From IMG/VR virus record IMGVR_UViG_2537561824_000013: a DNA stretch of 39,229 nt; one strand, given 5' to 3'. Each line of letters starts with the position of its first letter. The first letter of the stretch is position 1. The position numbers were made by a program, and so were the translations under genes. Of the stretch, positions 2,687 through 32,425 are shown in pieces. Origin of the DNA: a virus. Taxonomy: Duplodnaviria > Heunggongvirae > Uroviricota > Caudoviricetes. Under the pieces are notes generated by a model. The model did no database searches. It was not told where the DNA came from and was given only the letters and a program-made list of their open reading frames with translations.

Positions 2687-3259
2687 TTACATTTCAGGTT
2701 GCGTTATGACAGTCCCAACAGGGTGATAGCGGTAGATCGTTGACAGTCCAATATCATAGATAATTGCCAGCCGCTTTCTGTCATACCCTTTCTGGAGCAA
2801 TCTTGCGATCTGCTCATGCTGCTCCTTCGTCAGTTTCGGGCGACGTCCTCCAACTCTTCCTTGTGCTCGCGCAGCAGCCAGTCCAGCCAGCGTGCGCTCA
2901 ACTATCAGTTCACGCTCCATTTCTGCCAGTGCACCCATCATATGAAAAAAGAACCTTCCCATCGGAGTGCTGGTATCGATTGAATCCGTCAGACTGCGAA
3001 AATTGACACCTTTTGCGCGTAGCTCTTCTGTGAGAGCAATGAGGTGTTTCATTCTTCTACCCAACCGATCCAGCTTCCAGACCACCAATGTATCCCCTCT
3101 TTTAAGGCACTTTAAAGCGCGTTTCAGGCCTGGTCGTTCCGACTTGGTTCCGCTCATTTTGTCCTCAAAAATCTGTTCACATCCTGCGCACATTAATGCA
3201 TTGCGTTGCAAATCTGTGTTTTGGTCATTTGTTGACACACGTATGTAGCCAATCAGCAT
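2687..3259 (-). CDS. gin: Site-specific DNA invertase, Gin/Hin/Pin/Cin family serine recombinase
   Basis: ATG at complement of 3257-3259 preceded by AAGGGAG; product starts MLIGYIRVSTNDQNTDLQRNAL with the catalytic Ser context and ends in an HTH (GLSTIYRY); the 233-aa track ORF starting at GTG 3388 is an over-extension. Confidence 0.9.
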   Translation of the reverse strand: MLIGYIRVSTNDQNTDLQRNALMCAGCEQIFEDKMSGTKSERPGLKRALKCLKRGDTLVVWKLDRLGRRMKHLIALTEELRAKGVNFRSLTDSIDTSTPMGRFFFHMMGALAEMERELIVERTLAGLAAARAQGRVGGRRPKLTKEQHEQIARLLQKGYDRKRLAIIYDIGLSTIYRYHPVGTVITQPEM

Positions 3260-3325
3260 TAAAAATACTCCCTTTTGAGTGGTTAAAGTACTGAGATAAT
3301 GTGGGGAGGATTTGAGAGATAAACG

Positions 3326-3545
3326 TTGGTTTGGGGGAAGGCTCGGCGCTGCCCGTTGGTGTACCTGTTCCGTGGCCCACTGCCACACCGCCAGCAGGCT
3401 GGTTAAAGTGCGACGGGCGCGCCTTTACAAAAGAACAATATCCTGTTCTGGCCAGAGTCTACCCGACCCTCCGTCTTCCCGATTTGCGCGGTGAGTTTAT
3501 CCGTGGATGGGACGACGGGCGAAAAGTGGATACAGGGCGCGATCT
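3326..3545. repeat. Recombination repeat A at the 5' border of fiber cassette 1; inverted relative to repeat C
   Basis: About 220 bp nearly identical to 3765-3985 and, as reverse complement, to about 5150-5370; homology starts at TTGGTTTGGGGGAAGG, which resembles a gix/hix half-site (GGTTT...GGAA). Confidence 0.6.
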
Positions 3546-3759
3546 GCTTTCACGGCAGGATGGTACAAGTTTTTCTCATTACGCAGGTAATTTTGACATT
3601 GGGTCTGGTCATTCAATCAATAACTATGACCAAATCCTTGACAACCAACCTGGATTCTCCCGTTTTTCATTTGCAGGTCCTTCGCGAGGCGATGGGGTTA
3701 ATTATGTGACCATTCGTCCCCGTAACATTGCGTTTAATTACATCGTAAGGGCGGCATAG
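3331..3759 (+). CDS. Alternative tail-fiber C-terminal cassette 1 (promoterless and start-less exon, currently unexpressed orientation)
   Basis: Frame opens at TTG with no ATG or RBS; the first ~70 aa (GEGSALPVGVPVPWPTATPPAGWLKCDGRAF...GWDDGRKVDTGR) are identical to the matching segment of the expressed fiber, then diverge; ends in the conserved ...RPRNIAFNYIVRAA. Confidence 0.6.
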   Translation: MGEGSALPVGVPVPWPTATPPAGWLKCDGRAFTKEQYPVLARVYPTLRLPDLRGEFIRGWDDGRKVDTGRDLLSRQDGTSFSHYAGNFDIGSGHSINNYDQILDNQPGFSRFSFAGPSRGDGVNYVTIRPRNIAFNYIVRAA

Positions 3760-3764
3760 AAACG

Positions 3765-3985
3765 TTGGTTTGGGGGAAGGCTCTGCATTGCCTGTTGGTG
3801 TACCGGTTCCATGGCCCACCGCCACACCGCCAGCAGGCTGGTTACAGTGCAACGGAGCTACGTTCACCAAAGAACAATATCCTGTTCTGGCCAGAGTCTA
3901 CCCGACCCTCCGTCTTCCCGATTTGCGCGGTGAGTTTATCCGTGGATGGGACGGTGGTCGCAAGGTTGATACCGGGCGTGCGCTA
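3765..3985. repeat. Recombination repeat B at the 5' border of fiber cassette 2; direct with A, inverted relative to C
   Basis: Same shared sequence as repeat A, starting AACGTTGGTTTGGGGGAAGG. Confidence 0.6.
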
Positions 3986-4231
3986 CTTTCATTTCAGGAA
4001 GGGACTATCGTATCCGGTTTTGATGATAATGATACCGGAGATATCAGTTCGCTCGGCTCTACACAATACGGATTTGGTGACGCTTTAACCTCTAATCAAC
4101 TGGGGGTCTTAAATGGCAAAAAGTGGATATTTGATGCATCCTCTAAAGGTGCACAAAGATATGACTGGTGGGCTTATGTATCAGCTCGCCCCCGCAATAT
4201 CGCATTTAACTATATCGTGAGGGCGGCGTGA
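3770..4231 (+). CDS. Alternative tail-fiber C-terminal cassette 2 (promoterless and start-less exon)
   Basis: Frame opens at TTG; shares the N-terminal ~70 aa with cassette 1 and the fiber, then has a unique distal domain; same C-terminal NYIVRAA. Confidence 0.6.
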   Translation: MGEGSALPVGVPVPWPTATPPAGWLQCNGATFTKEQYPVLARVYPTLRLPDLRGEFIRGWDGGRKVDTGRALLSFQEGTIVSGFDDNDTGDISSLGSTQYGFGDALTSNQLGVLNGKKWIFDASSKGAQRYDWWAYVSARPRNIAFNYIVRAA

Positions 4232-4237
4232 TACCGT

Positions 4238-4852
4238 TCAGCCGGCAAGCGCCAGTGGCGCTTCCGGCCAGCTGATTTCAGGTGCCTTGCTGATATCCAG
4301 TGCGTTCAGCTCGTCGATATAATCCAGCACGGCGTTCAGTTTTGCCGTTTCTTCTGGTTTCAGACTGCGACCAGCACGCAGTTTGAGGTTGATAAGATCG
4401 ACGGACGCCATCGCCTGTTTCACCCGTTGCTGGCGTTGCTGTCTGGCAACCTCCAGTTCTGCGGCTCGCTGCCGTTCAGTATCGGTTACCCACGCCTCAC
4501 CGTTCCAGGTATCCCATGGCGTGGCTGGCTGTTTTGTGGTGGTGTCCGCCGGGTAATCACCCGGTTGGGTAATCAGAACGGGGTTACCGTTCTCCGTGCT
4601 GTATACCGTCTCGCCGCGGTGATCAGGCACATGCTCCCACCCGTTCAGCGTGGCAGTCCGGCAAACCACGTAACCCGAAATTGCTTCCGGCGGTGCATCG
4701 GCGCACGAATGTGCCGGAGTACCCACCCCAAGGGCGAGATACTCCACAGAGGATGAGGTGTATTCCCGGGTTTCCTCGTCATAGTGATATACAGTGATAT
4801 CGCCCGCTACAGTGGCGATACCGTTTTCATCCAGAACTGCAGTGTTACTCAT
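4238..4852 (-). CDS. Tail fiber assembly protein (Mu U / P2 G / Tfa-like chaperone)
   Basis: 204-aa ORF whose ATG overlaps the fiber stop codon; product has the N-terminal conserved region typical of Tfa proteins; its position right after the fiber gene matches Mu S-U. Confidence 0.75.
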   Translation of the reverse strand: MSNTAVLDENGIATVAGDITVYHYDEETREYTSSSVEYLALGVGTPAHSCADAPPEAISGYVVCRTATLNGWEHVPDHRGETVYSTENGNPVLITQPGDYPADTTTKQPATPWDTWNGEAWVTDTERQRAAELEVARQQRQQRVKQAMASVDLINLKLRAGRSLKPEETAKLNAVLDYIDELNALDISKAPEISWPEAPLALAG

Positions 4853-5149
4853 TAAACTGCCCTCACAATGTAATTAAGTGCAATGCTACGGGGTCTGACA
4901 GTGATACCCTTCGCATACCCGCTTCTGATAGAGGTCAGAATAGTAGCCTGCATACCATTGTCTGACATTGCCACGACAGGATCGCTGAATGTTGTCCCGT
5001 CCGGCATTTTAAAGCTGCCCTCACGAAGGTCTGTAATGGAATCTTCATTGTTGAATCCCATGCCGACTATCCCCGAGGTTCCCGTAGTGTCCTGGTTATA
5101 ATAATCCAGCATTGCTGTTCTTAACAGCGTTGCCCCTTGTGCGGACAGC

Positions 5150-5370
5150 AACTTACGTCCTGTATCAACTTTGCGCCCGTCGTCCCATCCACGGATAAAC
5201 TCACCGCGTAAATCGGGAAGACGGAGGGTCGGGTAGACTCTGGCCAGAACAGGATATTGTTCTTTTGTAAAGGCGCGCCCGTCGCACTTTAACCAGCCTG
5301 CTGGCGGTGTGGCGGTGGGCCACGGAACAGGCACACCAACGGGTAGCGCCGAGCCTTCTCCTAAACCAAG
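5150..5370. repeat. Recombination repeat C inside the expressed fiber gene; inverted relative to A and B
   Basis: Reverse complement reads CTTGGTTTAGGAGAAGGCTCGGCGCT... and is nearly identical to repeats A and B over about 220 bp. Confidence 0.6.
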
Positions 5371-5499
5371 GTAATTGAGGACATCTTTTATACTGCCCTT
5401 AGCGATAATAGCGCGACCAATAGCTGTAAGGGTTGCCAGCTCTGCGCGGTCTGCTCCGGTAAAATAAGGCAACCGATCTGCTGCAGTGGCAAGTCCTGC

Positions 5500-6000
5500 C
5501 AGAGCAGTGAGCGTGGCATCTGCCGGTTGTTTTCCGTTTGCCAGATCGTATGCAGCCTTGACCGCTTTCGGTGTGGCGGCCAGTATTTCAGACGTGCTGT
5601 TGATGGCACTGCTCAATTGTACGGTGCCTTTTGCCGTCAGCGAGGCAGCAGGCACTCCCGTTATCTGACTCCACGGGTGAGTGTGGCTGACGGGCGCCTT
5701 GCCGGCTGCAAGGTCGTATGCAGCCTTGACCGCCTTCGGCGTGGCAGCCTCAGTTTCTGATTGACTGTCCGTGGCGCTGCTCAGTTGTACGGTGCCTTTT
5801 GCCGTCAGCGAGGCAGCAGGCACTCCCGTTATCTGACTCCACGGGTGAGTTGGCTGACGGGGGCCTTGCCGGCAGCCAGGTCATATGCAGCCTTGACGGC
5901 CTTTGGTGTGGCGGCCAGCGTTTCAGAGGTGCTGTTGGTGGCACTGCTCAGTTGGGTGAACCCCTTAGCTGTCAGTGTCGCGTCCGGGTGGTTACGGGAA
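5500..6000. repeat. 168-bp tandem coding repeats (about three copies) in the tail fiber gene
   Basis: Each copy encodes ...SLTAKGTVQLSSATDSxSEtxAATPKAVKAAYDLAAGKAPVSHTHPWSQITGVPA...; the nucleotide copies are nearly identical. Confidence 0.8.
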
Positions 6001-26576: not shown

Positions 26577-27300
26577 AACTGCTGCCTCCCCATGTGAGAT
26601 ATCGCGGTGCCAGTTCGCGCAGGATGCGCTGCGGATAATGGCGGTTCTCCCGCCAGCTGGCCGCATTGCGTCCGGCATTCACCGTGGCGACATGTCCGAA
26701 CCAGCGGGTGCTGTCCAGACCTTTCTGTGATGCAAGCCGCCTGTCCCGTTGTACCCAGCCCAGACCACCGTTATAGCCCGACAGTGTCATGGCCATACGC
26801 TCGCAGTCACTGGCGGCGCTGACACGCTGCCACAGCCAGCGGTCATAGCTGACCAGCGCCCGGATAGCCCATGCCGGATTAAACGGCTCACGACTGCTCA
26901 GCATCGGTATCAACTGGCTTATCCAGTCGGCAGTGGCAGGCATGAACTGCGCCAGTCCCTGAGCGCCAGCCGGCGAGATCGCATCAGGTCGCCAGCCGCT
27001 TTCCTGATGCAGTTGCGCGGCGAAATCGGCCACCGGCGCAGACAGTCCCCATTCAAGCCGGGCATTACGGATCACATCATCGCGATACTGCAGCGCAGCC
27101 TGCGGAGGTTGTGCTGCGCATGCCTGGCTGAAAAAGCCGCCACACCAGAGCAACATTGCGACAAAGAATACCCATGCCATATGAACCAGAAAGGTCCCGG
27201 CGCGGACTGACAGGCGTTCGGTTCTGATGAAGACCCGAAAGGCTTCGAAAGCCAGTTTCAGGGACATGCATACAATCCAGGTGATCTGCGGCCAGTTCAT
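26560..27300 (-). CDS. Endolysin, SLT-domain lytic transglycosylase with N-terminal membrane/signal-anchor region
   Basis: ATG at 27300; SLT-type motifs (...ESGWRPDAISPAGAQGLAQFMPATADWI...); hydrophobic N-terminus. Confidence 0.75.
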   Translation of the reverse strand: MNWPQITWIVCMSLKLAFEAFRVFIRTERLSVRAGTFLVHMAWVFFVAMLLWCGGFFSQACAAQPPQAALQYRDDVIRNARLEWGLSAPVADFAAQLHQESGWRPDAISPAGAQGLAQFMPATADWISQLIPMLSSREPFNPAWAIRALVSYDRWLWQRVSAASDCERMAMTLSGYNGGLGWVQRDRRLASQKGLDSTRWFGHVATVNAGRNAASWRENRHYPQRILRELAPRYLTWGGSSCVASG

Positions 27301-27302
27301 GA

Positions 27303-27653
27303 TTAAAGCCCCATCGCAACAGCCAGGCAGACCGCTGCAACAATCAGTGCACGGCGGATTAACGCAGCAGAAAACACCAGGTGAAGGCCGGTCTGTACCG
27401 GGAAACGCCCTTCAGCCATCAGCCTGTCGTCATGTTTCAGGTACTGACCGGGACGGGCTTTGGGGAAGAGCGAACGGTCAAGCCAGTAACCCAGCACTGC
27501 TGCCAGCGTGATGAGTGCCAGCTTGTAGATCACAACAGGCAGCTGCTGTGGTGAGACCAGAGCGATGGTGCCCAGCAACAGCACTGAGGTCAGCAGCCAG
27601 CCGCTGAGGCGAGGTTTTTTAACAGGGGGAATGAATTTTTTCAGTTTTTTCAT
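27303..27653 (-). CDS. Putative holin (small multi-TM membrane protein)
   Basis: ATG at complement of 27651-27653 with AAGGAGA 6 nt upstream; about 116 aa with three hydrophobic segments; immediately upstream of the endolysin. Confidence 0.5.
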   Translation of the reverse strand: MKKLKKFIPPVKKPRLSGWLLTSVLLLGTIALVSPQQLPVVIYKLALITLAAVLGYWLDRSLFPKARPGQYLKHDDRLMAEGRFPVQTGLHLVFSAALIRRALIVAAVCLAVAMGL

Positions 27654-27783
27654 GTGTGTCTCCTTATCTGGTGGAGACAGCATCACAAATACAGGGCGCG
27701 AAGGATTTTAAAGCGCGTTAAGAGAGCCGGGGATACGGGATGTGCAGGATAAACGATGAATTATTCACAGAGGAGAATACGAT

Positions 27784-28512
27784 ATGACGCAGACACTGAA
27801 TCCGGTCATCACTGTCACCGTGTCCGGTCCTGTGGGCAGCGGTAAAAGTTACGTACTGGCGCGAATAGAGGAAGTGGTGAAACAGGAATTCGGAAACAGC
27901 GTCATTGTCGACGCCGCAGACGTGGACGGTGAGCGCCGTATGAGTGGGGATGATCTGAGCACATGGCAGAAACCACGGGCTGGCACAGTGATCAGGCTGG
28001 AGGAATACACGGGACAGGGCCTGTTGTCATACGGCGAGGAGCGTATCTGTCGGACGAATGAGCTGCTGGATGTTATATGCCCCACGGGCCGGCAACCCTG
28101 GATACTGCCCGATGCACTGCATGCCACCATTGCGGCACTGATGACAGTTTACGATCAGGAGCTGCTCATGAAGGAGTTACGTAAACTCACTGGTCAGTCA
28201 ACAGAATGTTGTTCGTCCCCGAAGTACGGCAAACAGGAACACATCCCGATTAACCAGCCTCCCCGGTTCTTCGACGAATACCTTCTGACACCGGAAAATA
28301 AAGCTGAGCATGAAGAGATCAAAGCGGCGTTGTTCCGGGAAATCAGGAAGATTGCTGAAATGCAACTGGAGGGCGGGCTGGACAGAGTGATGGCGAGAGG
28401 AGAATGGGCATCGCTGTTTGAAAGAGTTTCCCCGGAATTACTTCCCCTCGCACTGGCTATCGGGATTATGCAGACAGCGGATAAACCTCACTTACGTTCA
28501 TTAAACACGTAA
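27784..28512 (+). CDS. Hypothetical protein with N-terminal P-loop (Walker A) motif; unknown function
   Basis: ATG at 27784 with AGGAGAA upstream; Walker A-like GPVGSGKS at residues 15-22; the remainder is unrecognisable to me. Confidence 0.6.
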   Translation: MTQTLNPVITVTVSGPVGSGKSYVLARIEEVVKQEFGNSVIVDAADVDGERRMSGDDLSTWQKPRAGTVIRLEEYTGQGLLSYGEERICRTNELLDVICPTGRQPWILPDALHATIAALMTVYDQELLMKELRKLTGQSTECCSSPKYGKQEHIPINQPPRFFDEYLLTPENKAEHEEIKAALFREIRKIAEMQLEGGLDRVMARGEWASLFERVSPELLPLALAIGIMQTADKPHLRSLNT

Positions 28513-28892
28513 CGCATAATCCGGGATACGCATTCAGCGATGACTGCATTTTCACCGGTTTTTACTGCATCCAGAAGTGACTCTTTAAATGGTACGGGCC
28601 GGGGCTGCAGAAAGGTCGGCATGGCATTGAGCAGACAGAGCGTTTTTTCCGTGAGGACGACATCAGCCGCTCCCACAGCCAGCAACTGAGAGTAACGAAT
28701 ATAGCTGTTATCCCGAAGCCATATCAGCGTATCAATAAAACACCGGCACTTTTTCTGGTCGTGATCAACCTGGTCCGGGATATCGAAAAAACCAGAATAA
28801 ATCAAAACCTGAGGTGCCGGATGCGTGTTCAGTAATCGGCAGAATATTTTGCCGGTGAGTACATAAAAATCATCATTTAAGGAGTGCATCAT
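28488..28892 (-). CDS. Hypothetical protein (134 aa), unknown function
   Basis: ATG at complement of 28890-28892 with a weak GGGGA Shine-Dalgarno; converges on and overlaps the 3' end of the P-loop gene by 25 nt; its start codon overlaps the start of the divergent 71-aa ORF. Confidence 0.35.
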   Translation of the reverse strand: MMHSLNDDFYVLTGKIFCRLLNTHPAPQVLIYSGFFDIPDQVDHDQKKCRCFIDTLIWLRDNSYIRYSQLLAVGAADVVLTEKTLCLLNAMPTFLQPRPVPFKESLLDAVKTGENAVIAECVSRIMRYVFNERK

Positions 28893-29106
28893 GAATCCCC
28901 GATTAACGTTAACAGAACATCAGCGCCGTGCTGAAGCAGTGAACAATGTTCTGGAAGATATTATCCGGTTATACCGCGGAGAACTGAGTGTCTGTCGTGC
29001 CGCTTTTCATTTTCAGGGAATACAAAAGCAGTTTGATACTTCTGTTTTTGCAGAAGGTATTACTTATGCCCTGGACCGGATAAGGTCAGAAAATCGCCCC
29101 GGATAA
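28891..29106 (+). CDS. Hypothetical small protein (71 aa), unknown function
   Basis: ATG at 28891 with TAAGGAG 7 nt upstream. Confidence 0.45.
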   Translation: MNPRLTLTEHQRRAEAVNNVLEDIIRLYRGELSVCRAAFHFQGIQKQFDTSVFAEGITYALDRIRSENRPG

Positions 29107-29160
29107 TCCCTAAACCACATTAACAGAAATCCCGCCATCCCTGCCGCATCATGAAAGAAC

Positions 29161-29192
29161 GACCAGCCCGGCACCCGAAAGCCGGGCTGGTC
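29161..29192. other. Perfect 12-bp stem / 8-nt loop hairpin between the 71-aa ORF and the methyltransferase gene
   Basis: GACCAGCCCGGC acccgaaa GCCGGGCTGGTC; not followed by a U-run on the plus strand and only a modest one on the minus strand. Confidence 0.5.
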
Positions 29193-29296
29193 ATCGCCCC
29201 ACAGGAATGCGCTGTGAGCCGACCAAGGTTCAGTCAGTCTCGCGAGACCTGACCAGACTGCCATATTTTTTAATAATTGTAAAAGGCTTGCAGATT

Positions 29297-30061
29297 ATGA
29301 AAATGCAGACATTACCCATCGTGCCGTGGATTGGTGGCAAACGCCGCCTTGCAAAACACATTCTGCCGCTGTTTCCGGCGCATGAATGTTATGTGGAGCC
29401 GTTTTGTGGGGCAGCAGCGCTCTATTTTCTTAAGACACCCGGCAAGATCGAAGTCATCAATGATATCAACGGTGAACTGGTGAATCTGTACCGGGTGGTA
29501 AAGCATCACCTGGAAGAATTTGTCCGCCAGTTCAAATGGGCGCTGGTCAGCCGTCAGATCTACAAATGGCTGCAGATCACCCCGGAAGAAACACTGACGG
29601 ATATCCAGCGTGCGGCACGGTTCTACTACCTTCAGAAGCAGGCGTTTGGCGGCAAGGTGGCAGAGCACAGCTTCGGTACCTCCACCACATCCCCGCCACG
29701 CTTCAACCTGCTACGTATTGAAGAAGAACTGTCAGCGGCACACCTGCGGCTTTCCAGAACAGTCATAGAACACATGGACTGGCAACAGTGCATTGAGCGT
29801 TATGATCGTCCGCACACGCTGTTCTACTGCGACCCACCGTACCTGGGTACGGAAGGCTATGGTGTGGATTTTCCTGAAGGGAACTACTCGCGGCTGGCAG
29901 AGCTGGCCCGGTGCATCAGAGGAAAAATGATAATTTCGGTGAACGACATCCCGCAGATGCGCGAGGTGTTCACTGGACTGAACATACAGACAGTGAATAT
30001 CAACTACAGTCTGGCGGGTAAACCCACGCCGCGCCGTGAACTGCTAATCTGCAACTTCTGA
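29297..30061 (+). CDS. DNA adenine methyltransferase, Dam-like (D12 class N6-adenine MTase)
   Basis: ATG at 29297; product MKMQTLPIVPWIGGKRRLAKHILP... has the Dam-type N-terminus, an AdoMet motif (EPFCGAAALYF) and the catalytic DPPY motif; specificity cannot be read from sequence. Confidence 0.85.
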   Translation: MKMQTLPIVPWIGGKRRLAKHILPLFPAHECYVEPFCGAAALYFLKTPGKIEVINDINGELVNLYRVVKHHLEEFVRQFKWALVSRQIYKWLQITPEETLTDIQRAARFYYLQKQAFGGKVAEHSFGTSTTSPPRFNLLRIEEELSAAHLRLSRTVIEHMDWQQCIERYDRPHTLFYCDPPYLGTEGYGVDFPEGNYSRLAELARCIRGKMIISVNDIPQMREVFTGLNIQTVNINYSLAGKPTPRRELLICNF

Positions 30062-30068
30062 AACAAAA

Positions 30069-30091
30069 CCGGAAAGCACAATGCTTTCCGG
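30069..30091 (-). terminator. Intrinsic terminator for the repressor transcript (also sits just after the methyltransferase gene)
   Basis: CCGGAAAGCA caa TGCTTTCCGG is a 10-bp stem; on the minus strand it is followed by TTTTGTTT. Confidence 0.55.
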
Positions 30092-30177
30092 TAAACCAAA
30101 CAACTTCCACTATGTCACTGGCGATGTTTTCTGAAAGCATCCAGATCAACCACCTGTCCTTTGTGTCCGGGTCAGTA

Positions 30178-30534
30178 TCAGCCTGCGATTTTTCCTGGTT
30201 TTGGCTGAGTATAGAATCGCCCAATCTCAAGAAATGAGCGTTGTTGGTCTGGTGTCATGTCGTCAAAAGTATCTATTAGTTTTTGTTTTTCTGGGGAAAT
30301 TTGATTCTGGTTTCTAGTCATACCATCTGTGCTCATTCCAGTGAGCAACCAATTTACATCAACATTAAACTCTTGATGCATCTTTAACAGAAACTCCCCT
30401 CCAGGCATCGCCTTTCCATTTTCAATCTGACTGATACCACCATTAGAAATACCTAAACGAGCTGCAAATTCTCTCTGGTTCAACCCTGCTTTCTTCCTCA
30501 CAGAAATAACGCGCTCTCCTATATCTTTGCTCAT
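30178..30534 (-). CDS. Prophage immunity repressor, XRE-family HTH protein
   Basis: 118-aa ORF divergent from the early operon; HTH segment LNQREFAARLGISNGGISQIENGK; its start codon lies inside an operator half-site. Confidence 0.8.
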   Translation of the reverse strand: MSKDIGERVISVRKKAGLNQREFAARLGISNGGISQIENGKAMPGGEFLLKMHQEFNVDVNWLLTGMSTDGMTRNQNQISPEKQKLIDTFDDMTPDQQRSFLEIGRFYTQPKPGKIAG

Positions 30535-30575
30535 AAAAGTGAATCTCTATCTTGATATGCTCATAATTATGAGCA
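30528..30575. promoter_or_regulatory. Candidate operator/divergent promoter region between the repressor and the early operon
   Basis: Perfect 18-bp palindrome TGCTCATAATTATGAGCA at 30558-30575 plus an extra half-site TGCTCATAA at 30528-30536 overlapping the repressor ATG. Confidence 0.55.
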
Positions 30576-30627
30576 ATAATCTAACACATATAAGGCAAAC
30601 ATCATTGCATCAACAAAGGAGACAACG

Positions 30628-30816
30628 ATGACTGCAGAACAAGTCAAAGCTCTCTTCCGCCAGCGCGGGATCACTTTCACCCGCTGGGCAGAAGAAAACG
30701 GCTACAACCGCAATGAGGTATACCGCGTTCTCAACGGGCAGACCAAAGCCCGTTACGGTAAATCCCATGAAATCGCCGTGAAGTTGGGACTGAAATCAAC
30801 AGCTCAGGCGGCCTAA
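30628..30816 (+). CDS. Small DNA-binding early regulator (functional position of Mu Ner / lambda Cro)
   Basis: ATG at 30628 with AAAGGAGA upstream; 62-aa product with an HTH-like segment (YNRNEVYRVLNGQTKARYG); first gene of the rightward operon opposite the repressor. Confidence 0.55.
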   Translation: MTAEQVKALFRQRGITFTRWAEENGYNRNEVYRVLNGQTKARYGKSHEIAVKLGLKSTAQAA

Positions 30817-30862
30817 ATATTTTGAGTCTTTGTAAAAGGTTATCACATATCGCAAAAGAGGT

Positions 30863-31177
30863 ATGCAGATGAGTAAGACGAATGTTTCAAGCTCCGGCAG
30901 TCGCATCCTCCGGGTACTCAAAGCGCTGCGCGGTCATGCCCTGAACGGTATTTCTAACGGTGAACTGGCGACAGCACTGCACGAGTCACCGGCAAACATC
31001 AACCGGGCACTCAACACCCTCATTGAAGAAGGGCTGGCTCTGAAACTGGAGAACGGACGTTTTGCACCGGGCATCCAGTTACTGCAGATCGCCATGGCCC
31101 ACAGTAACGAGATGGCACGTGCACAGGATCGTATTAACGAAATTAACCAACGTGTCATTTCAGGTAGTCGTTTGTAA
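30863..31177 (+). CDS. Putative winged-helix DNA-binding protein
   Basis: 104-aa ORF with ATG at 30863; HTH-like segment ISNGELATALHESPANINRALNTLIEEGL. Confidence 0.45.
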   Translation: MQMSKTNVSSSGSRILRVLKALRGHALNGISNGELATALHESPANINRALNTLIEEGLALKLENGRFAPGIQLLQIAMAHSNEMARAQDRINEINQRVISGSRL

Positions 31178-31187
31178 GGAGTAATCA

Positions 31188-32108
31188 ATGGGACGTACCA
31201 AATCACCGATTAACACTGAACTGAACGCCGATGTACCGCTGTCGGATGATCTCAACGTCAGCCTGAATGCCATGACACAGCATCGCATGGAGATCATGCA
31301 GCAGTTTGGTGATGGACTGCCTTATGAACGTGAACGCATCGTTCACGAAGCACGTTTTTATATGGCGCAGAGTGCTGAATCTATGTTGGAAGCGGGTAAG
31401 CGGCTGATCATCTTAAAAGAAAATGAACCGCATGGTGATTTCACAAATATTCTGGAAAACGACCTCGGATTAGCACCACAGGTAGCTCGTCGCATGATGC
31501 AGGCCAGCGTGAAATTTCTCGGCAATGGAGATGAACAGCCAAAACGCTCAGCGCTGAGCGTTTTGGGAAAAACCAAGTTATATGAACTGATGGTTCTGGA
31601 TGACGAAGAACTCGACGCATTAGCTGATGGTGGAACCGTCGCCGGTGCAACGCTTGATGATATTGATCGCATGACCAGCCGCGAACTGAAGGCCGCCCTG
31701 CGTGAAGCGCGCGAAACCAACGCAGCTCAGCAACAGGTGCTTGCCGGAAAGGACGAAAAAATCAACGAACTGGCCACAAAACTGGAGAAGAAATCGCGCC
31801 TGCAACCTCCGCCGCCAGACGAAGAACTGAAAAAATTGCGGGCGGAAGTGACGGCATTAGCGGTTGAGGCCGAATCGGCTATCGCCGTCCGGCTGTCCAG
31901 TGTTTTTGAGACCCTGTGTGAATACTGCACCAAAAACATGATCGATACCCCCAGAGATTTCATGGCCGGTCTGGTCTGCCAGATTGAACGCAGTGTTCAT
32001 GCATTACGTGAGACGTTTGACCTTGAGGCCGCTCCATCGGGTAACGATGCCCCCGCCTGGCTGACCGAACCGGAACCTGAAATCAACCGACCGGAGGATA
32101 TGCAGTAA
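31188..32108 (+). CDS. Hypothetical early protein (306 aa)
   Basis: ATG at 31188 with TAAGGAG upstream; acidic helical protein; no family recognised. Confidence 0.5.
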   Translation: MGRTKSPINTELNADVPLSDDLNVSLNAMTQHRMEIMQQFGDGLPYERERIVHEARFYMAQSAESMLEAGKRLIILKENEPHGDFTNILENDLGLAPQVARRMMQASVKFLGNGDEQPKRSALSVLGKTKLYELMVLDDEELDALADGGTVAGATLDDIDRMTSRELKAALREARETNAAQQQVLAGKDEKINELATKLEKKSRLQPPPPDEELKKLRAEVTALAVEAESAIAVRLSSVFETLCEYCTKNMIDTPRDFMAGLVCQIERSVHALRETFDLEAAPSGNDAPAWLTEPEPEINRPEDMQ

Positions 32109-32425
32109 TGAATACGAATAACACACAAAATACCCTGATGGACAGCCCGGAGGCACTGGGGCACGCACTGTGTAATCTGCTGCCGGAGATGGTGCAGGGT
32201 TTCCGCGTGGTGACCCCTTCCGGTGAAATCTGCGTACCCGCACAGGAGACGCACCCGTTTGTACTGACGATGGAGGTGATGCTGATGCAGCAGATAAGAC
32301 GTCTGCAGAATCAGTCAGCATTACGCCCGGTAGTTGCACCGCAACCGGTAAATACCGTGGTGAAAACCTGCGATGGCGAAACACTGTGCGACCTCGCCAG
32401 AAAAATTGCCGCCAGAATCGGATAA
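32108..32425 (+). CDS. Hypothetical early protein (105 aa)
   Basis: ATG at 32108 in a TAATG overlap with the preceding stop. Confidence 0.45.
   Translation: MNTNNTQNTLMDSPEALGHALCNLLPEMVQGFRVVTPSGEICVPAQETHPFVLTMEVMLMQQIRRLQNQSALRPVVAPQPVNTVVKTCDGETLCDLARKIAARIG

Follow-up and report, generated by a model that had tools for sequence, protein, structure and literature searches.

The window analysed here (the whole stretch of 39,229 nucleotides) begins with host and IS DNA (positions 1-2608), in which GC content is 33-41% around an ISAs1-type DDE transposase ORF (951-2087) and a CN-hydrolase ORF on the minus strand (2129-2656), truncated at its N terminus, adjoins the end of a prophage at approximately position 2609. 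From there to the window end, the prophage shares 99.3-99.6% nucleotide identity with the prophage located between aroA and ycaL in Escherichia coli EC958. Since the left-hand 2.6 kb differ from the EC958 flank, the same phage is inserted here at another chromosomal site, as expected of a transposable phage. The window is 99-100% identical to the deposited phage record PhiKM, and positions 27000-32200 are 100% identical to this Escherichia phage (Bcepmuvirus); the host element is an active, BcepMu-type transposable phage. The features on which our analysis centres are as follows.

2687-3388, minus strand: serine DNA invertase, the last phage gene (Pfam Resolvase and HTH_7; homology to EC958 Phi2 from 2609)
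27303-27686, minus strand: holin, first gene of the lysis/head/tail operon and left border of the accessory slot (phrog_1528, 1e-54; RefSeq 'putative holin')
29147-29302, plus strand: conserved structured leader RNA of about 150 nt, ending at the methylase start codon (covariance model R1, 148.9 bits)
29297-30061, plus strand: ORF of a D12-class N6-adenine DNA methyltransferase, 254 aa (PF02086 and TIGR00571 matches)
29396-29422, plus strand: motif I, AdoMet-binding EPFCGAAAL (residues 34-42; aligns with EPFVGAGSV of E. coli Dam, hereafter EcoDam)
29831-29842, plus strand: catalytic motif IV, DPPY (residues 179-182, read directly; invariant in aligned relatives)
30068-30092, minus strand: terminator-like hairpin and T-run of the convergent repressor gene (found by scan; 11-bp stem, then TTTGTTT)
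30178-30534, minus strand: HTH repressor-like gene, convergent with the methylase gene (PHROG repressor/regulator families; NCBIfam RstR/DicA-like)

Read from the left, the prophage carries a serine invertase with an invertible tail-fibre segment, then genes for tail, head and lysis (minus strand), an island of lower GC content, and an HTH repressor gene (minus strand); these are followed, all on the plus strand, by ner-like, IclR-like and DUF3102 genes, a DDE transposase and, after the transposase, an ExeA-type ATPase, gam, gemA and mor. Judged by gene order, this arrangement is of the BcepMu type and not of the Mu type. The invertible tail-fibre region (2687-5823) contains 229-nt inverted repeats (3323-3551 and 3762-3990 versus 5144-5372), together with alternative tail-collar ORFs on the opposite strand, and resembles the G-segment and Gin of Mu. 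A perfect 16-bp palindrome, GCTCATAATTATGAGC, is found at 30559-30574, within the 93 bp from which the repressor and the ner-like gene diverge, and is likely to be an operator, adjoining a 10/12 sigma-70-like promoter (30552-30580). The tetranucleotide CTAG is nearly absent from positions 2661-39229 (2 observed versus 10 expected).

The methylase gene is situated in an accessory slot between the lysis cassette (holin) and the repressor, approximately 26.7 kb from the invertase end, and the hairpin at 30068-30092 separates it from the repressor gene. The first-pass annotation had described this as the position in which Mu would carry its DNA-modification function, which is incorrect for a gene in the repressor/lysis slot. 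The same annotation was right that the invertase end lacks a mom-like gene: the invertase is the last phage gene, we found no mom-like ORF beyond it, and PGAP annotates no Mom-family protein in the identical prophage of EC958. The slot carries the methylase in BcepMu-like enterobacterial prophages of at least nine genera, including Klebsiella, Buttiauxella, Brenneria, Xenorhabdus, Photorhabdus, Mixta, Serratia and Symbiopectobacterium, whereas the flanking cargo varies among them; in BcepMu itself, unrelated genes occupy it. In the present phage, the lineage-specific cargo alongside the methylase (27784-29106) comprises three genes, whose products are a Walker-A protein of 242 aa (phrog_3787), a protein of 134 aa encoded on the minus strand (phrog_2266) and one of 71 aa (phrog_4490); a Serratia locus (L025) has a homologue of the first. 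In the KP12 lineage, a DUF2441 gene stands in place of these three genes, while the methylase and its leader are kept. Searches of Pfam, NCBIfam, PADLOC and PDB sequences identified no restriction endonuclease, restriction-modification or defence family among the neighbours, and no Com homologue or small CxxC...CxxC ORF was detected in the window by tblastn or with a zinc-finger pattern.

The methylase ORF matches Pfam PF02086 (MethyltransfD12) with E = 6e-29 and 102 bits (cut-off 22), residues 11-234 aligning to profile positions 1-248, and it scores 116.6 bits against NCBIfam TIGR00571 'dam', marginally above the cut-off of 114.85. Its AdoMet-binding motif lies N-terminal to DPPY, in an order in which both motifs align with those of EcoDam, and E34, F36 and G38 are invariant throughout the enzyme clade. 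The DPPY motif favours adenine as the target base. By sequence, the closest solved relatives are DpnM (E = 6.5e-17) and EcoDam (E = 5.5e-14); the predicted structure (16 close homologues aligned) has a pLDDT of 55.5 and is too poor for fold comparison. The ORF is kept full-length in many genera, and comparison with the KP12 lineage yields a dN/dS of 0.09 at a dS of approximately 1.1, indicating purifying selection. Its motifs, domain match and selection consequently mark the gene, at the sequence level, as a genuine, intact orphan m6A methyltransferase, and the initial description of a stand-alone DPPY adenine methyltransferase without an adjacent endonuclease is upheld. The start codon at 29297 agrees with RefSeq and with homologues. 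In the GenBank record of PhiKM (PQ738613, CDS 29908-30762), the methylase is given a 30-codon N-terminal extension that coincides with the leader RNA stretch. We rejected this longer start (29207), given that a frameshift and a stop break the frame in the KP12 lineage and that, across 29207-29296, 4 of 4 substitutions relative to KP12 are non-synonymous; the start in the PhiKM record has probably been mis-called.

The enzyme itself is a known and ordinary component, which has been named, published and annotated in hundreds of genomes. At 254 of 254 residues it is identical to EC958_RS05075 (WP_000783854.1), the sole annotated (D12) methylase of prophage Phi2 in E. coli ST131 strain EC958. Under the name M.EcoMIV (EC958_1101), it has been described as a type II orphan D12 enzyme on Phi2, identical in more than 80 E. 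coli genomes, and no homologue above 65% identity had a known recognition site (Forde et al. 2015, mBio; PMC4659465). In the EC958 lysogen, transcript levels were significantly lower for this gene than for host dam, and no methylation pattern or extra m6A motif in the SMRT data could be assigned to the enzyme (Forde et al. 2015; PMC4659465). In our own searches, 526 of 5426 complete E. coli genomes carry it; as the phage transposase gene is present in 639, the methylase is a common but not universal cargo of the phage lineage. No experimentally determined target for M.EcoMIV, or for its relatives phiE125 gp27, VP882 Dam and B3 ORF48, was found in the literature searched.

The family is widely distributed, with members in 818 phage records (tblastn), and a wider representative search returned 674 clusters at E <= 1e-30 and 21,473 at E <= 1e-3. 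Some of the distant homologues are giant proteins with two to four methylase domains (e.g. P0123, 1635 aa; P0141, 1548 aa; P0235, 2505 aa). Relatives at 62-66% identity include B3 ORF48, phiE125 gp27, phi1026b gp26, KS9 gp25, the Dam genes of VP882 and phiHAP-1, and genes of the Mu-like phages MuM16-1 and Curvibacter TJ1. Relatives of 61-72% identity are often found downstream of a Com ORF, which is the com-mom architecture of Mu. Thus B3 ORF48 (64% amino acid identity) overlaps a Com homologue (ORF47), and in TJ1 a com-methylase pair lies at the genome end, with the Com-like ORF upstream. Among 78 usable species-representative genome loci (61-86% identity), a Com-type zinc-finger ORF is located immediately upstream of the methylase in 23. 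The positional analogy with Mu is wrong for the present phage, yet it holds for relatives of its enzyme. Another Dam-related family, Hia5/Hin1523, replaces Mom behind Com in FluMu/Pnm1-type prophages and protects DNA, and B3 ORF48 was not among the 1000 closest relatives of Hia5 by PSI-BLAST (Drozdz et al. 2012). This failure to retrieve B3 ORF48 argues against membership of our methylase in the Hia5 family. Given its linkage with Com and its separateness from Hia5, the clade would represent a second, independent putative Mom substitute in many Mu-like phages, and this place in its Mu-like relatives offers, by analogy, the best pointer so far to what it does in the present phage.

Between lineages, the 150 nt that precede the start codon show the same degree of conservation as the coding sequence, even though synonymous sites are saturated. 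The elements of this leader are listed below.

29161-29192, plus strand: hairpin P1, 12-bp stem with an 8-nt loop (covariation; MAFFT and RNAalifold)
29200-29204, plus strand: CACAG, upstream partner of the central segment and putative anti-sequestor (covariation)
29212-29220, plus strand: central switch segment CUGUGAGCC, pairing upstream or with the ribosome-binding site (RBS) region (three-way covariation)
29226-29259, plus strand: hairpin P3 with the apex palindrome GTCTCGCGAGAC (RNAalifold and pair counts), followed by a T-run at 29266-29271
29285-29293, plus strand: GGCUUGCAG, lying after the Shine-Dalgarno sequence and before the start codon, with complementarity to the central segment (helix pairing)
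Leader also at other loci: L005, 2705-2851; L014, 2350-2509; L015, 2349-2497; L007, 2844-3000

Across ten Enterobacterales prophages, RNAalifold predicts P1, P3 with its T-run, and a long-range helix, CUGUGAGCC:GGCUUGCAG, which stops 3 nt short of the AUG. Compensatory changes are seen at 12 of the 36 predicted leader pairs in these ten sequences, and the columns of the long-range helix (70-78 with 150-158) are 97.8% paired. The palindrome GTCTCGCGAGAC occurs only once in the window. Built from the ten leader sequences, a covariance model, R1, was matched over its full length and on the same strand in about 50 of 69 non-training loci, immediately before the methylase or before com; these loci include B3, phiE125, VP882, MuM16-1, Pseudomonas, Methylophaga, Shewanella and Variovorax, as well as a metagenome-assembled genome (MAG) of Francisella and deltaproteobacterial MAGs. 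In 42 aligned leaders, 89.9% of cells pair as opposed to 72.2% in shuffles, 30 of 36 pairs show double-sided changes, and compensatory cells number 248 against 74.5 in shuffles, slid controls giving 29-43%, although these counts lean toward the model structure because the alignment was fitted to the covariance model. All 14 pairs of P1, and 6 of the 9 pairs of the long-range helix, have compensatory changes in this set of 42. Two checks escape this bias. An independent alignment of 20 diverse members (MAFFT and RNAalifold) recovers P1 together with a local hairpin, CACAG/CUGUG, and this hairpin, which is absent from the model, is 93.7% paired in the 42 sequences, with 26 compensatory cells versus 7.8 in shuffles, a value reached by 0 of 500 shuffles.

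The central 5-mer of the leader thus has two covarying partners, an upstream 5-mer and the RBS region, and variants at the three positions change in concert: CACAG / CUGUGAGCC / GGCUCACAG, UGCAG / CUGCAAGCC / GGCUUGCAG, and CACUG / CAGUGAAUC / ..UUCAC (upstream, central and RBS side, respectively). This covariation supports two mutually exclusive predicted folds, one of which would cover the RBS. Because many of the pairs are G-U, and so valid on the sense strand only, they point to a structure of the sense transcript. A core-pattern scan of viral contigs recovered 64, of which 51 carry a methylase of the same family just downstream, at a gap of 53-83 nt in 48, with an intervening Com ORF in two, and at approximately 700 nt in one. 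Of the other 13, 11 belong to a single unrelated coding-sequence family and reflect chance, and one consists of a leader and Com at the contig edge; of approximately 53 genuine matches, 51 accordingly have this methylase family downstream. Across phages of many Proteobacteria, the leader accompanies the enzyme clade. Rfam 15 contains no match at E <= 1 for the region in the window (the one hit listed falls within the CDS and is a chance resemblance to a miRNA) and none at E <= 0.5 for six other leader loci, and the leader is apparently without earlier description, making it the sole possibly new element of our findings. Its promoter was not located; a sigma-70-like candidate at 29249-29277 was discarded, being situated inside P3 and not conserved in relatives.

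With respect to function, the reading that we consider reasonably probable is that M.EcoMIV is an orphan alpha-group (D12) methylase carried as slot cargo by BcepMu-type prophages of Enterobacterales, nearly silent in the lysogen, gated by its leader, and serving to protect phage DNA during the lytic phase. Of these points, the identity of the enzyme, its intact catalytic motifs, the purifying selection and the conservation of the slot are established by our analysis. In the lysogen the gene is almost silent according to the literature, given its low transcription and the missing extra motif, and covariation supports pairing of the central segment of the leader either with the upstream 5-mer or with the stretch from Shine-Dalgarno to start codon, with a presumed effect on translation. 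During lytic growth the block would be relieved, potentially through co-transcriptional kinetics, a phage protein or a ligand, and the methylase made; it would then modify replicating phage DNA, such that packaged genomes may resist adenine-methylation-sensitive restriction in the next host. This would be the same job as that performed by com-mom in Mu and by the com-methylase operons of B3-like phages, and tightly repressed, lytic-phase self-methylation is the most likely role because relatives show the com-mom architecture. The suggestion in the first-pass annotation that the enzyme protects phage DNA from host restriction is, by analogy with clade members behind a Com ORF in other Mu-like phages, plausible. 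Against this, the analogy with Mom is weakened here by the fact that the phage has no Com and carries the gene outside the mom position. When the sequences preceding the methylase and the lysis operon were compared, no shared late-promoter or activator motif emerged (one chance resemblance lies inside a coding start), and for this reason expression in the lytic phase is something that we infer. A broader and more tentative proposal, which we offer as possible, is that the ~150-nt leader acts in Mu-like, lambdoid and N15-like phages of Proteobacteria as a hitherto undescribed cis-regulatory RNA switch that gates translation of a methylase potentially harmful to the cell, together with, or in place of, Com, and that the clade has a non-GATC, possibly relaxed, specificity befitting a general Mom substitute.

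An alternative to be weighed against lytic-phase protection is that the gene encodes a true GATC-specific Dam paralogue that tops up GATC methylation of the phage, either to avoid MutH nicking or to control packaging or transposition as in P1 and T4, and that duplicates host methylation in a Dam-positive host. We judge this rather unlikely, despite the fact that TIGR00571 'dam' is passed, just over its cut-off, that GATC is the target of the best solved relatives, DpnM and EcoDam, and that the annotation of phiE125 gp27 notes a similarity to M.AlwI (GGATC). The EcoDam equivalog model NF008152 fails on our enzyme (67 bits, cut-off 441). Horton et al. are said to have identified, in 2006, K9, Y119, N120, L122, R124 and P134 as the residues by which EcoDam reads GATC. 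In two independent alignments (MAFFT and hhalign) these fall on P10, F117, G118, K120, A122 and S125/S132, the aromatic alone being retained and the other five replaced, in a mapping of the recognition loop that relies on sequence alignment because of the poor structure prediction (pLDDT 55.5). Within the clade the replacing residues are themselves conserved, suggesting that the read-out is distinct yet specific. Consequently, GATC specificity is not to be assumed, in keeping with the initial remark that the target is unreadable from the sequence, and D12 membership fixes neither target sequence nor target base, since one PDB match, 7M6B, is M.CbeI, an alpha-class N4-cytosine enzyme. Moreover, the prophage part of the window (2661-39229) is depleted of GATC by a factor of two (94 observed versus 177 expected), a pattern of GATC-linked selection on phages that counts weakly against self-protection at GATC, and Com-type control with an RBS-occluding leader would be unusually tight for a harmless duplicate activity. 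The missing new motif in EC958 may mean that the enzyme is silent, or that its target is GATC or a subset such as GGATC and is masked by host Dam, as a paralogue would also predict; silence is favoured over masking because M.EcoMIV transcription is low.

The remaining alternatives are considerably less probable. The gene might act in lysogenic conversion, as an epigenetic regulator expressed from the prophage whose new methylation pattern changes host gene expression. It is a separate, hairpin-flanked unit in a lower-GC cargo island and is widespread in ST131 and other lineages, yet transcription significantly under that of host dam and the absence of an assignable methylation pattern in EC958 (PMC4659465), a leader able to occlude the RBS, and relatives under Com control make such a role very unlikely; the earlier proposal of altered methylation-dependent host regulation is disfavoured on the same grounds of low transcription and no extra m6A motif. 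Still less credible is that the methylase supplies the modification activity of a defence or restriction-modification module formed with its 242-aa Walker-A, 134-aa and 71-aa neighbours: although these are of unassigned function and one has a P-loop, none matches a nuclease, restriction-modification or PADLOC family, and the KP12 lineage swaps them for its DUF2441 gene while retaining methylase and leader. That the gene is an inactive relic would agree with the lack of detected activity in any lysogen methylome, but is equally improbable given a dN/dS of 0.09, catalytic and AdoMet motifs that are all invariant, and a full-length ORF in so many genera.

Orphan methylases are commonplace in temperate phages. 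To our knowledge, how such enzymes stay silent has so far been worked out for Mu com-mom only, and a leader with mutually exclusive pairings offers a concrete handle on their silencing. This adenine methylase is found in approximately 10% of complete E. coli genomes, those of the pandemic ST131 clone among them, and if expressed on induction as our favoured reading of leader-gated protection would have it, the enzyme could influence which hosts are open to a transposable, transducing phage.

Among known systems, the closest is M.EcoMIV on EC958 Phi2, where protein identity is complete and the prophage differs little at the nucleotide level (99.3-99.6% identity), although Phi2 lies between aroA and ycaL and the present prophage is bordered by an IS and a CN-hydrolase gene that is truncated. 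Phage B3 is similar in that ORF48 belongs to the same clade (64% identity) and the ORF47/ORF48 operon is preceded by the same leader RNA; this pair is regarded as the DNA-modification cluster that replaces mom in B3 (Drozdz et al. 2012). However, in B3 Com overlaps the start of the methylase gene and tail genes surround the module, whereas the E. coli phage has no Com and carries its module between lysis and immunity genes. E. coli Dam, DpnM and T4 Dam share with our methylase the fold class, motif order, DPPY and AdoMet motifs and approximately 25% full-length identity, yet relative to EcoDam the recognition hairpin is possibly 7 residues shorter and five of the six GATC-reading residues differ. 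Hia5, Hin1523 and Nma1821 are likewise DPPY, Dam-related enzymes replacing Mom behind Com, which are non-specific and protect against many restriction enzymes (Drozdz et al. 2012), but they constitute a different sequence family, B3 ORF48 not being among the 1000 closest relatives of Hia5. Finally, com-mom of Mu is also a tightly repressed phage modification gene in which the RBS region can be sequestered in an mRNA helix, a likeness to our leader. In Mu, the translation-inhibition stem lies within the com-mom transcript and is opened by the Com protein. By comparison, our leader has no sequence similarity to that stem, is found upstream of com where com is present, and occurs without Com in the present phage; the enzyme downstream of it is a Rossmann-fold methyltransferase, and not an acyltransferase-like protein of the Mom family.
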